This document shows, in pieces, positions 10,926 through 62,937 of a stretch of 64,000 bases of DNA. The notes beneath the pieces were generated by a model. The model saw nothing but the letters and a program-made list of their open reading frames with translations, searched no databases and had not been told where the DNA came from. The position numbers were made by a program, and so were the translations under genes. Each line of letters opens with the position of its first letter. Position 1 is the stretch's first letter. The DNA comes from Escherichia phage DCP548, in sequence record PQ671645.1, one strand, 5' to 3'.

Positions 10926-10947
10926 AAAAGGGAGACCGAAGTCTCCC
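10926..10947 (-). terminator. Intrinsic terminator after the small basic ORF
   Basis: gggagac-cgaa-gtctccc (10930-10947) followed on the minus strand by UUUUG. Confidence 0.5.
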
Positions 10948-10952
10948 TAAAA

Positions 10953-11132
10953 TTATGCAACAACCTTTCCAAAACGAGAAGCATCATCTCGAAGAACTGC
11001 ACGTGCTCTGCGCATGATCTTCTCAACGGTTTGATTAATACGAGAGTTCGACCCACGCTTGTATCCAGCGCGTTTAGAGGTACCATCAACTTTCTTTTCT
11101 ACTGCTTTCTTTGCTTTAGCTTGTTTTGCCAT
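10953..11132 (-). CDS. Small basic protein (59 aa), not in the ORF track
   Basis: ATG at 11130-11132, stop at 10953-10955; hand translation MAKQAKAKKAVEKKVDGTSKRAGYKRGSNSRINQTVEKIMRRARAVLRDDASRFGKVVA; followed by terminator hairpin 10930-10947. Confidence 0.4.
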   Translation of the reverse strand: MAKQAKAKKAVEKKVDGTSKRAGYKRGSNSRINQTVEKIMRRARAVLRDDASRFGKVVA

Positions 11133-11399
11133 TATAAATTCTCTTTAAATGAAAATGCAGGACTTATTGACATTGCCTGCTCAAGCCCTCAAGGGGAACA
11201 TAGGTTTTGGATATTTAACGTCAGGATAACCATAAACCCGTCATCATACCGACCACGACTTAGACAGATAACCTTTTTCTGACGCGTGATAGTACAAAAT
11301 ACATTCAAGAGGTACACCGTAAAATTGTCGGGGCGGTACTTCAAAACATACCGATTCGCAAATCGATAATCAGACAATTCGACGGCTCCTCGATTTAAC

Positions 11400-50930: not shown

Positions 50931-50959
50931 AAATTAAAATGAAGCTCCCGAAGGAGCTT
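50931..50959 (-). terminator. Terminator-like hairpin after gene 39
   Basis: aagctcc-cgaa-ggagctt (50942-50959) overlapping the gene 39 stop, followed on the minus transcript by a U-rich tract. Confidence 0.45.
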
Positions 50960-52775
50960 AGGACATCCATTCTTTACGAAGTTCTGAATCATCACCCATC
51001 AACATTTCAAAGAGTTCTTTCCAATTTTCAGGAAGTTTAACTACGTCGTACACAGGGTTCTGAATCATTTCACGATATTCTGACTTTTCAAGGGAGCCTA
51101 ATCCCTTGATGTATCGAATACTATGCTTAGGCAGTGTATCTTTAACTTCTTCATACTCAGCTACAGTATAAAACCATTTTTGAGTTTTGCCAATTTGTGC
51201 AATAATTACAGGCGTTTTAACAAAGCGAATACGTCCTTGTTCAAACAATTCAGGCCAATTACTAAAGAAAGCAAGCAAAGCCGGATAGATACTTCCAAGA
51301 CCGTCATGATCGGCATCGGTCATAATTGCAATATTACGATAGTTCGTATTCTCTGCCTTTTCACCAAGAATAAGACCTGTGATAGCACAGATATCGAAGA
51401 GCTCTTTGTTCTTCATCATATCGGCATATGACATACCCCAGCTATTCATCACCTTACCACGTAATGGGAATCCACCGTGTAGTTCACGGTCACGAACATC
51501 AATGAGATAACCAATTGCCGAATCACCTTCTGTTAAAAACAATGTCGTATCTGCATCTTTACCACATTGGTTAGCTTTAATATGCTTATGAACCTTAGCT
51601 TTAGTTGCCTTTTTAGCTGCTTTAGTTTCTGCAGCCTTTTCTGCTGCCAATTTACGAGCTAATGCTGCTTCAACAATAGGCATAATCAAGGCTTCGTTTT
51701 TAAGAAGTGCCTGAGCAATTTTCTTAGCATCTAATTGGATATGATTACGAATATCGCCATACGTTGACGTTAAACGTTCTTTAGTCTGAGAATCAAAACG
51801 CATGTTGCTCATGTCTCTAATAAACATCAACATTGTGAGACATTCTTTAACACGAGCTTTAGTGACTTCAATACCCTTATATTTCTTTTTAATACCCGGC
51901 AAAAGATGTTCGCAGATATCATCCATTACACATTCAACATGATGACCACCATTTTTAGTATGGATGTTATTCACATAAGTTAAATGACGGAAGCCGTCCG
52001 GCGATGTTGTGAATGCTATAGAGACTTTATCATTTTCTTGAATGATGCTATCTTCGCCAAATTGTTTAGCAAATCGTTTAAAATTACCATCAACCTTTTT
52101 ACCATTAAATGTGAACTTGATATCAGGATAAACGACTGCCAATGTTTGAAGTCGGTCTAAAGTAATATCTAAATAAATTTGAGATAAATTATGCTCTTCA
52201 AATGAAGAGAAATCAGGAGTGAAGATTACTTTAGTGCCTTTACCTTTAGATTTCTTAGAAGACCATGATTTGTTTTCCATTCCGTTTGAACAGTTAACAG
52301 TGATTTCATTTTCGCCATCTGACGTGATGCCTGTAAACAACGTAGAGAAGATATTAGTTAAACTACTCCCGACGCCGTTCATACCACCAGTCTTGCGTTC
52401 AGAGTCATCACCAAAGTTACCACCGGCCTTTGGAATAGTCCAGGCCGCTACAGGCCCAGGAATTTGTTCACCTGTTTGGTCGGTAACTAAACCTTGAGGA
52501 ATACCACGCCCGTTATCTTCCACTGAAACTTGATTATTTTTAATTTGCACATCAATTTTATTTGCAAACTTAAATGATGTACGAATAGCTTCATCAACCG
52601 AGTTGTCAATAATCTCATCGATTAATTTAACCAGACCAGGAACATATTCAACTTGTTGATATTTACCAAACAAAAAACGCTCGTGGGCTTCTTTAGCCGA
52701 AGAACCAATATACATACCACTACGTTTCTTAATATGTTCTACATCTGACAATACCTTAATTTCATTTTTAATCAT
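50958..52775 (-). CDS. 39: DNA topoisomerase II large subunit (GyrB-like), uninterrupted gp39+gp60 form
   Basis: 605 aa; N-terminal GHKL ATPase; C-terminal 130 aa (IAIMTDADHDGLGSIYP...KLPENWKELFEMLMGD) match T4 gp60, so the protein is contiguous with no bypass element. Confidence 0.95.
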   Translation of the reverse strand: MIKNEIKVLSDVEHIKKRSGMYIGSSAKEAHERFLFGKYQQVEYVPGLVKLIDEIIDNSVDEAIRTSFKFANKIDVQIKNNQVSVEDNGRGIPQGLVTDQTGEQIPGPVAAWTIPKAGGNFGDDSERKTGGMNGVGSSLTNIFSTLFTGITSDGENEITVNCSNGMENKSWSSKKSKGKGTKVIFTPDFSSFEEHNLSQIYLDITLDRLQTLAVVYPDIKFTFNGKKVDGNFKRFAKQFGEDSIIQENDKVSIAFTTSPDGFRHLTYVNNIHTKNGGHHVECVMDDICEHLLPGIKKKYKGIEVTKARVKECLTMLMFIRDMSNMRFDSQTKERLTSTYGDIRNHIQLDAKKIAQALLKNEALIMPIVEAALARKLAAEKAAETKAAKKATKAKVHKHIKANQCGKDADTTLFLTEGDSAIGYLIDVRDRELHGGFPLRGKVMNSWGMSYADMMKNKELFDICAITGLILGEKAENTNYRNIAIMTDADHDGLGSIYPALLAFFSNWPELFEQGRIRFVKTPVIIAQIGKTQKWFYTVAEYEEVKDTLPKHSIRYIKGLGSLEKSEYREMIQNPVYDVVKLPENWKELFEMLMGDDSELRKEWMS

Positions 52776-52821: not shown

Positions 52822-52838
52822 AAAAAGGGCCGAAGCCC
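52822..52838 (-). terminator. Intrinsic terminator-like hairpin after ORF 52839..53264
   Basis: gggc-cgaa-gccc with aaaaa on the plus side (U5 on the minus transcript). Confidence 0.45.
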
Positions 52839-53264
52839 TTATTTAAATTTAATTTTCTGAAGTGCATCAATTGCAGCCAAACGCCCTTGTTCACTTTTAA
52901 CTGTAATGACCACATCGCCTGATACGATCACCGAACCATCAACAAATTCTATAGAGCCTTTTTTGAAATCGACAGCTGTATCTGGTTCCGGAACTTCTTC
53001 AAAGAATTTAAATTCTGCACCATAAAGCAGAATATCACCTTGCATACTATGAATAGTTCGGCCATAATCGCCTACGGCTTCTACAGCAATAACCGAAACG
53101 CCGTAACCAATCATCTCTTCCACAATAAAATCTTTGGACAATAAAGTAGTATGCAGATTAGTATTAAGACGCTTACCAGTCGTATTAAGAATTCTCAAGA
53201 AATTATCTTCCTGTCCTTTGATAATACGATATTTCTTACCAACTTCAAAACCTTTAAAAGCCAT
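52839..53264 (-). CDS. Hypothetical protein
   Basis: 141-aa ORF followed by a CGAA-loop terminator hairpin at 52827-52838. Confidence 0.45.
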   Translation of the reverse strand: MAFKGFEVGKKYRIIKGQEDNFLRILNTTGKRLNTNLHTTLLSKDFIVEEMIGYGVSVIAVEAVGDYGRTIHSMQGDILLYGAEFKFFEEVPEPDTAVDFKKGSIEFVDGSVIVSGDVVITVKSEQGRLAAIDALQKIKFK

Positions 53265-53266
53265 AA

Positions 53267-53446
53267 TTAACCCTTCTTAAGTAAGTCGTAAAAACCACCG
53301 TTCACATGTTTAGGAGCAGAAACCCGACGAGTAGACAGACGATGACATTCAGGGCAAACATCGTTTTCTCGTTCAGAAATTCTTTTAATTTTTTCATATT
53401 CATGGCCACAATCTTCAGATTGACATTTATAGTCGTATAACGGCAT
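53267..53446 (-). CDS. FmdB-family zinc-ribbon protein (59 aa), not in the ORF track
   Basis: Hand translation MPLYDYKCQSEDCGHEYEKIKRISERENDVCPECHRLSTRRVSAPKHVNGGFYDLLKKG; MP.Y.Y.C..CGH.FE ... CP.C signature of FmdB-type regulatory zinc ribbons. Confidence 0.55.
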   Translation of the reverse strand: MPLYDYKCQSEDCGHEYEKIKRISERENDVCPECHRLSTRRVSAPKHVNGGFYDLLKKG

Positions 53447-53448
53447 TA

Positions 53449-53877
53449 TTATTCCTTAAAATGTGCTTTCAACATTTGATACAAAGACCATGCCTGGTCG
53501 TTATTTTCGATAGTAATCGTCATCACCGGAAATTCAGACAATTCGTCAAGTTCACCAGAATCTTGCTCTTCGGACGCTAGATATGGATTTTCAACTTCGT
53601 CAAAGAACTCTGCTTCATTCGTGGAGAGCCAGATAAAGTTTTCATCAAGGATATCACCGCCTGTTGCGTATCCAACCGTGCCAGTAGATGTCACAATTTT
53701 AGTAGGACGACCAAGATGGTCAACATCTAATACTTTAAATGGTTCCATGCCAAGACGTCGTGCATAAATCCCATTATCAGTGTGGTCTTTAATAAACTCT
53801 TCTTGGGCACGTTTATCTATAAATTGATACCATGAGTTAACGCGGAATTTATTAGCCATTAGTAAGTTTCCTTCCAA
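53449..53877 (-). CDS. Hypothetical protein
   Basis: 142-aa ORF; true start may be the downstream Met (MANKF). Confidence 0.45.
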
Positions 53878-62549: not shown

Positions 62550-62774
62550 TTAACTCCTTTGTTGTTTAATTACAGGTGTATTTATAATGAATTTCTTCGG
62601 GACAATAAAATATCCGAATTTAGCTAATATAACAACATCACCGTTAATTATTACCGGAGAATAATCATCTGGAGTATTAAATTTCCAGTGGAGTCTAGTA
62701 TTATATCCATCAGAGCCGAATGCTTTATTAGCCGGTCTCCCGGCTTTTTGCCATGCATAAAAATCAAGTTTCAT
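62550..62774 (-). CDS. Hypothetical small protein
   Basis: Track ORF 62550..62870 trimmed to Met MKLDFYAW (start codon 62772-62774); contains the soc late promoter. Confidence 0.35.
   Translation of the reverse strand: MKLDFYAWQKAGRPANKAFGSDGYNTRLHWKFNTPDDYSPVIINGDVVILAKFGYFIVPKKFIINTPVIKQQRS
62579..62586 (-). promoter_or_regulatory. Late promoter TATAAATA for soc
   Basis: Plus-strand tatttata is TATAAATA on the minus strand, about 32 nt upstream of the soc ATG (62547). Confidence 0.65.
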
Positions 62775-62937
62775 TTGCAACCCAATCAACCATATGTAGA
62801 TGGTCTGATAATTGACTAACATGCTGAAGCTGATTAGATAGGAGCTTACAAATAAGCTCACTGTTATCATTTTTAAATAGCTGGTCGATACGTTTCTTGT
62901 GGGCTTTCTTAAGCTGTCGTTTATTTAAACGAGCCAT
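62764..62937 (-). CDS. Small basic protein (57 aa), not in the ORF track
   Basis: ATG shares one nt with the gene 56 stop (TAATG); hand translation MARLNKRQLKKAHKKRIDQLFKNDNSELICKLLSNQLQHVSQLSDHLHMVDWVANET; its stop overlaps the next ATG. Confidence 0.3.
   Translation of the reverse strand: MARLNKRQLKKAHKKRIDQLFKNDNSELICKLLSNQLQHVSQLSDHLHMVDWVANET

Follow-up and report, generated by a model that had tools for sequence, protein, structure and literature searches.

Gene 39.2 of a T-even phage related to RB69 encodes a small FmdB-type zinc-ribbon protein that very probably modulates host GroEL

Does the short reading frame wedged between two small genes of Escherichia phage DCP548 encode a protein and, if so, what might that protein do? 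The frame lies on the minus strand of the window, by which we mean the whole stretch of 64,000 nucleotides of record PQ671645.1 that was analysed. The first-pass annotation had presented it as an overlooked gene for a regulatory zinc ribbon of the FmdB family. The features to which we refer throughout are the following.

53267..53446, minus strand: coding sequence of gene 39.2, 59 codons plus TAA (list of open reading frames, identity to RB69, tblastn, dN/dS)
53321..53446, minus strand: zinc-ribbon domain, residues 1-42 (PF09723, TIGR02605, AlphaFold2 model)
53425..53423, minus strand: presumed zinc ligand C8, invariant in the alignment of 115 family members
53410..53408, minus strand: presumed zinc ligand C13, at least 90% conserved among the 115 members
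53356..53354, minus strand: presumed zinc ligand C31, at least 90% conserved among the 115 members
53347..53345, minus strand: presumed zinc ligand C34, invariant in the alignment of 115 family members
53270..53320, minus strand: C-terminal tail, residues 43-59 (SAPKHVNGGFYDLLKKG), predicted to be flexible (pLDDT 60-66), with the motif SAP..[VI][NH]GG[FY]YD
53453..53457, minus strand: Shine-Dalgarno-like AAGGA, 6 nt 5' of the ATG of 39.2 and within the last codons of goF (read from the sequence)
53449..53859, minus strand: goF (comC-alpha), the upstream neighbour (open reading frame, goF-related PHROGs phrog_13003 and phrog_2980, annotation of relatives)
52839..53264, minus strand: homolog of RB69ORF005c, 141 aa, the downstream neighbour (phrog_622, E = 7e-22, annotation of relatives)
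52825..52840, minus strand: terminator-like hairpin AAGGGCTTCGGCCCTT followed by TTTGCTTT, closing the run of small genes before gene 39 (pattern scan and sequence)
50958..52775: gene 39, large subunit of the phage topoisomerase

The reading frame, its orthologs and its neighbourhood

The frame was found as it had been described, running from an ATG to a TAA and encoding a product of 59 aa (MPLYDYKCQSEDCGHEYEKIKRISERENDVCPECHRLSTRRVSAPKHVNGGFYDLLKKG). It also occupies the whole gap between the frames at 52839..53264 and 53449..53877, leaving two bases on either side: one spacer separates the TAA of goF (53451..53449) from the ATG of 39.2 (53446..53444), the other separates the TAA of 39.2 from the ATG of the next gene (53264). 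The sequence context of the Shine-Dalgarno element (...TTTAAGGAA.AATA...) is retained in related loci. goF probably starts with the ATG at 53859, where the annotation of relatives places it, and not with the TTG at 53877. At the junction of the two genes the window reads TAA-TA-ATG, and at least one close relative carries CAA in place of TAA, which makes the stop codon of goF overlap the start codon (TAATG). Judged from these sequences, the junction is subject to drift, being a 2-nt spacer in the window and a 1-nt overlap in the relative, and both forms would be compatible with translational coupling.

Its product and RB69 gp39.2 (RB69p006, NP_861696.1) are 100% identical, and 1.5 kb around the frame match Mosigvirus genomes, the best being Escherichia phage 348Ecol098PP at 99.0%, where the same frame is annotated; the window itself is identical to none of the records in the phage collection. 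The frame is thus, with near certainty, the 39.2 gene of a T-even phage of the RB69 type (genus Mosigvirus). Identity amounts to 79% with 39.2 of RB32 and to 82.5% (tblastn) with a T4 record, and the orthologs of the T4 group that carry the same tail are 81-86% identical to the protein of the window. Conservation among T4-like genomes, which had been proposed as a check, was borne out: tblastn matches to the frame came from 955 phage records, and in 912 of these the match covers at least 80% of the protein; the frame is also under purifying selection. The gene is annotated in most of the relatives sampled, including RB69, T4 and RB32, and the suggestion of a missed gene does not hold. In the T4 reference (NC_000866.4, 5646..5839) 39.2 is annotated with 45 aa only. 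Compared to RB32 this record has one extra T (GCTTCCTAAG versus GCTCCTAAG), and its removal yields a protein of 58 aa ending in ...SAPKHGNNGFYDLLKG, which equals the length given by Georgopoulos; the extra T probably stems from a sequencing error or from a frameshift specific to that strain.

The codon comparisons drew on orthologs taken from viral contigs and on RB32. The Tequatrovirus orthologs differ from the window by 22-28 synonymous and 11-14 nonsynonymous changes, and third codon positions hold 25-28 of the 37-39 differences. With dN around 0.1 and dS above 1.6 or saturated and not computable, dN/dS came to 0.06-0.08. Selection on 39.2 is strongly purifying.

These data bear on the simplest alternative, namely that 39.2 is a chance frame in an AT-rich intergenic gap from which no protein is made. 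A frame of this length is common by chance: the window contains 147 ATG-started frames of at least 59 aa, about 33 are expected per mononucleotide shuffle of the window, and numerous clearly spurious frames nearby overlap real genes. Length alone is hence no proof of a gene. The frame owes its standing as a real gene to the profile matches (PF09723 and TIGR02605, both above their curated thresholds, see below) and to the substitution pattern, with dN/dS far below one at saturated synonymous sites. Its retention in the 955 records, the Shine-Dalgarno element at the right spacing and the tight packing between neighbours also speak against a chance origin, to which we attach practically no probability; the profile matches, the 955 records and dN/dS refute it. 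An Rfam scan of the whole 64-kb window returned no family at the gathering score. It thus detected neither tRNAs nor RNA genes of any other known kind, and nothing that suggests a structured RNA in competition with the frame.

The genes follow in the order cef (Pfam T4_Cef), goF, 39.2, the 141-aa frame, the terminator-like hairpin and gene 39, with 39.2 on the same strand as goF and gene 39. RB69 and 348Ecol098PP have the same order from cef to gene 39; that of RB32 is equivalent, and so is that of T4 if the 141-aa gene is left aside. This RB69ORF005c-like gene lies directly downstream of 39.2 in the window phage, RB69 and RB32, whereas T4 has only 39.1 at that place. In Krischvirus ECD7 and Pseudotevenvirus Miller the homolog of 39.2 immediately precedes gene 39, and in Tequatrovirus, Mosigvirus and two further T4-like phage records it is found upstream of gene 39 at a distance of a few small genes. 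The stretches fetched from Serratia phage Muldoon and Cronobacter phage LPCS28 show different genes around the homolog.

Both genes flanking 39.2 match phrog_622, the RB69ORF005c-like gene at E = 7e-22 and goF at E = 2e-38, and both match goF-related PHROGs as well. The common segment of the two proteins is short (...FF[ED]EV.[EN]P). A recent duplication was considered and rejected, as pairwise BLASTP gave just E = 0.028 over 17 residues; by their sequences, the two genes bracketing 39.2 may at most be distant paralogs.

Two further small genes of the window

Two other small frames had been listed as missed together with 39.2, and both correspond to known genes.

10953..11132: gene 30.9, 59 aa, 18 K+R versus 5 D+E, pI 11.35
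62764..62937: soc.2, 57 aa, pI 9.65, between gene 56 (dCTPase) and soc.1/soc

The frame at 10953..11132 is very basic, as had been stated from the sequence. Situated downstream of rIII and gene 31, gene 30.9 has tblastn matches in 1006 phage records and appears as "ORF 31.-2" in an old T4 record; phage JS09 annotates gp30.9 with a note citing RB69 gp30.9 (NP_861910.1). A clean hairpin (GGGAGAC-TTCG-GTCTCCC, then TTTT) is present after the gene at 10947..10926. The roughly 265 nt that precede the gene (11133..11399, after rIII) contain no convincing open reading frame and no Rfam match, and a gap of equal size is unannotated in JS09. In several phages, the homolog of 30.9 bears the implausible label "1,4-alpha-glucan (glycogen) branching enzyme, GH-13-type".

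The frame at 62764..62937 had been described as basic, 57 aa long and overlapping start or stop codons on both sides. Length and charge were confirmed, and so was the overlap on the 5' side (TAATG, with the stop codon of gene 56); the overlap on the 3' side was not, the start of soc.1 lying 9 nt past the stop codon of soc.2 according to the annotation of a relative. For the next gene, the longest open reading frame (62550..62870, 106 aa) runs into soc.2 out of frame and is probably too long. Only 26 phage records contain a homolog at least 95% identical to soc.2, and the nearest of them is annotated by comparison with T6 and RB14 instead of RB69, so that the soc.1/soc.2 module looks mosaic within Mosigvirus.

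Zinc ribbon and C-terminal tail of the 39.2 protein

The proposed assignment to the FmdB-type zinc ribbons was upheld by the profile searches. Pfam Zn_ribbon_8 (PF09723) matched residues 1-42 over profile positions 1-40 of 41 with 49.3 bits (gathering score 34.4), and NCBIfam TIGR02605 ("FmdB family zinc ribbon protein") matched residues 1-44 with 48 bits (cut-off 31.3); by the curated thresholds of both, 39.2 belongs to the FmdB family. Among the PHROGs, the protein matched phrog_1076 (E = 1.9e-12). A word-indexed protein search with 39.2 returned just 8 clusters, and an exhaustive search of representatives was needed to reach the wider family: phmmer, run against 1.84 billion representatives, retrieved 252 sequences related to 39.2 at E ≤ 1e-3. 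The family alignment comprised 115 of these 252 relatives, locus-derived sequences being left out, and was used as input for AlphaFold2.

The protein opens with MPLYDYKC, which is the N-terminal motif M-P-x-Y-x-Y-x-C of the family. M1, P2, Y4, C13, C31 and P32 are conserved in at least 90% of the 115 aligned members, and C8 and C34 in all of them. The two cysteine knuckles, C8-x4-C13 and C31-P-E-C34, align with the conserved cysteines of the family, and the 4-residue spacing of the first knuckle is a variant that 39.2 has in common with other members written C-x-x-E-D-C. From these four presumed ligands, the protein may be expected to bind zinc. His takes the place of Cys as second ligand of the first knuckle (C-x-x-H-G) in Krischvirus ECD7, in Serratia phage Muldoon and in several relatives from metagenomes. 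The first knuckle thus reads C-x2-H in some phage relatives and has the longer form C-x4-C in T-even phages, and both the exchange of His for Cys and the difference in spacing indicate that the metal site is variable within the 39.2 subfamily.

The AlphaFold2 model (mean pLDDT 79) consists of four short strands forming the ribbon, with pLDDT 85-88 over residues 1-40 and a lower confidence of 60-66 in the tail. Among solved structures, the model comes closest in fold to generic zinc ribbons, e.g. those of bL33, RPB12 and MCM, and these matches do not discriminate for or against a regulator. Searching solved structures by sequence gave insignificant matches to bL31 only (E ≥ 0.3) and no relative in the PDB.

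Behind the ribbon, the T-even proteins continue with SAPKHVNGGFYD, and the tail motif is identical in the Mosigvirus and Tequatrovirus orthologs. Among the 150 best representatives, 21 have the short tail SAP..[VI][NH]GG[FY]YD, with a protein length of 55-75 aa, and 33 have the bacterial-type tail F-K-G-x-G-[WF]-Y-x-x-D-[YF], which is mostly followed by a longer, often low-complexity extension. The phage tail shares alignment columns with the tail of three bacterial-type members; as both types fall into the same columns, the tail looks like a family feature and not like a phage invention.

GroEL modulation and relation to known systems

The sequence of 39.2 itself contains nothing that points to GroEL, and the function proposed here comes from the literature on T4. 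According to a summary by Georgopoulos of work with D. Ang, T4 39.2 encodes a peptide of 58 aa (NwgI), genetic and biochemical data suggest that NwgI moves GroEL towards an open conformation that binds the host or phage cochaperonin, and T4 phage deleted for 39.2 fails completely to grow on particular groEL mutants of the host (PMC5153855). The literature on T4 also credits the protein with suppression of groEL mutant phenotypes. The NwgI-GroEL account is restated by an independent group (PMC4396842), and both papers cite Ang and Georgopoulos 2012 (Genetics 190:989, PMID 22234860). The mechanism is taken here from these two secondary summaries and goes back to the work of one laboratory. Taken together, we consider it highly likely that gene 39.2 of the window encodes a zinc-ribbon protein that modulates host GroEL, the mechanism being transferred by orthology. 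The selection in the original study by Ang and Georgopoulos reportedly recovered RB69 39.2 first. The sequence search of solved structures yielded neither a physical complex of Gp39.2 with GroEL nor a structure of one.

The window also encodes the phage cochaperonin.

11773..12105: gene 31, phage cochaperonin (Cpn10 match)

The 59-residue protein consists of a four-cysteine FmdB/Zn_ribbon_8 ribbon (residues 1-42) and a short tail, predicted to be flexible, with a GGFYD motif. Its gene belongs to the leftward run of tightly packed small genes upstream of gene 39, and its translation is probably coupled to that of goF. We propose that Gp39.2 would shift host GroEL to the open state that binds a cochaperonin, either host GroES or phage gp31, and this shift would keep chaperonin-dependent folding going on hosts with suboptimal GroEL. 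Gene 39.2 would accordingly act as an accessory factor of host range or fitness, and would be neither an essential gene nor a demonstrated regulator of transcription.

Two other functions have to be weighed against GroEL modulation. The database label "FmdB-like transcriptional regulator" and the PHROGs category "transcription regulation" suggest a small nucleic-acid-binding regulator whose ribbon binds DNA, RNA or RNA polymerase and thereby tunes early or middle expression of the phage, and the neighbours goF, cef and motB are annotated as acting on RNA or transcription. The protein is near neutral, however, with a pI of 7.69, unlike typical nucleic-acid binders. The label "regulator" itself has its origin in a conjecture about fmdB of Methylophilus. 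A full-text literature search for FmdB retrieved no functional study of the bacterial family, the same search for NwgI/Gp39.2 retrieved citing papers only, and our analysis found no evidence for the name "FmdB-like transcriptional regulator". The word "regulatory" in the first-pass annotation is an inherited family name, and the sole experimental work on 39.2, as far as the two summaries relate it, assigns GroEL modulation to the T-even protein (PMC5153855, PMC4396842); we regard a regulator as unlikely.

Alternatively, the protein might serve as an accessory to the type II topoisomerase of the phage or to some other replication protein, its effect on GroEL being indirect or secondary. This reading draws on the position of 39.2, which in Krischvirus ECD7 and Pseudotevenvirus Miller immediately precedes the large-subunit gene and in Tequatrovirus, Mosigvirus and the two other T4-like records lies a few small genes away; such constancy of position beside gene 39 might point to another or an additional role. 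Adjacency to gene 39 is nevertheless weak evidence because gene order is conserved throughout this region of T4-like phages, and the homologs of Serratia phage Muldoon and Cronobacter phage LPCS28 have other neighbours in the stretches fetched. Support for a topoisomerase partner was not found in the literature, and we rate this role as very unlikely, leaving modulation of GroEL as the favoured function.

It is conceivable, if decidedly improbable, that the conserved tail, which aligns with that of bacterial members, is the element of Gp39.2 in contact with GroEL, that the proteins of the bacterial FmdB family are themselves chaperonin modulators and that phage 39.2 is a captured and minimised copy of one of them. 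If this were true, the very large bacterial family of "FmdB regulators" might really consist of chaperonin modulators. Our analysis yielded no support for this reading: no linkage to groESL was seen at the three bacterial FmdB-family genes examined, an anecdotal sample, and in the model the tail is a probably flexible part of moderate confidence. These three genes are located in housekeeping contexts (aspS; folD/gcvT; galU-like/tsaD), whereas 39.2 is carried by phage genomes.

As a discovery the frame has little weight, since 39.2 is already known, its annotation dating back to the RB69 genome record and its function having been studied in T4; the practical value is curatorial. Should the source record be devoid of coding sequences for 39.2, 30.9 and soc.2, they ought to be added, which would close a gap in one record. 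For the product, "gp39.2, GroEL modulator NwgI-like zinc-ribbon protein" would be a better name than "FmdB-like transcriptional regulator". Implausible labels also occur among the relatives of 39.2: T2 (AP018813.1) calls it "kilA: anti-repressor protein", and a matching region of a jumbo phage is labelled "type I antifreeze protein".

Compared with the systems already described, the closest counterparts of the protein in the window are RB69 gp39.2 and T4 NwgI, which share its length class (58-59 aa), its tail motif and its genomic slot between goF and gene 39. Like gp31 of T4 and RB69 and CocO of RB49, Gp39.2 would be a phage protein that adapts the host GroEL machine. The means differ, in that gp31 is a GroES-like heptameric lid with a Cpn10 fold, whereas Gp39.2 is a zinc ribbon of 59 aa that lacks similarity to Cpn10 and is reported as a modulator and not as a lid. 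The bacterial FmdB family (PF09723 Zn_ribbon_8; TIGR02605 CxxC_CxxC_SSSS) resembles 39.2 in the N-terminal MPxYxYxC, in the two cysteine knuckles and in the aromatic, glycine-rich motif directly after the ribbon. The two differ in the first knuckle, which is C-x4-C in 39.2 and C-x2-C in the bacterial family, and in the tail, which in 39.2 is a short SAP..VNGGFYD plus 5 residues and in the bacterial proteins F-K-G-x-G-W-Y-x-x-D-Y with a long extension rich in Ser, Gly, Ala and Lys.
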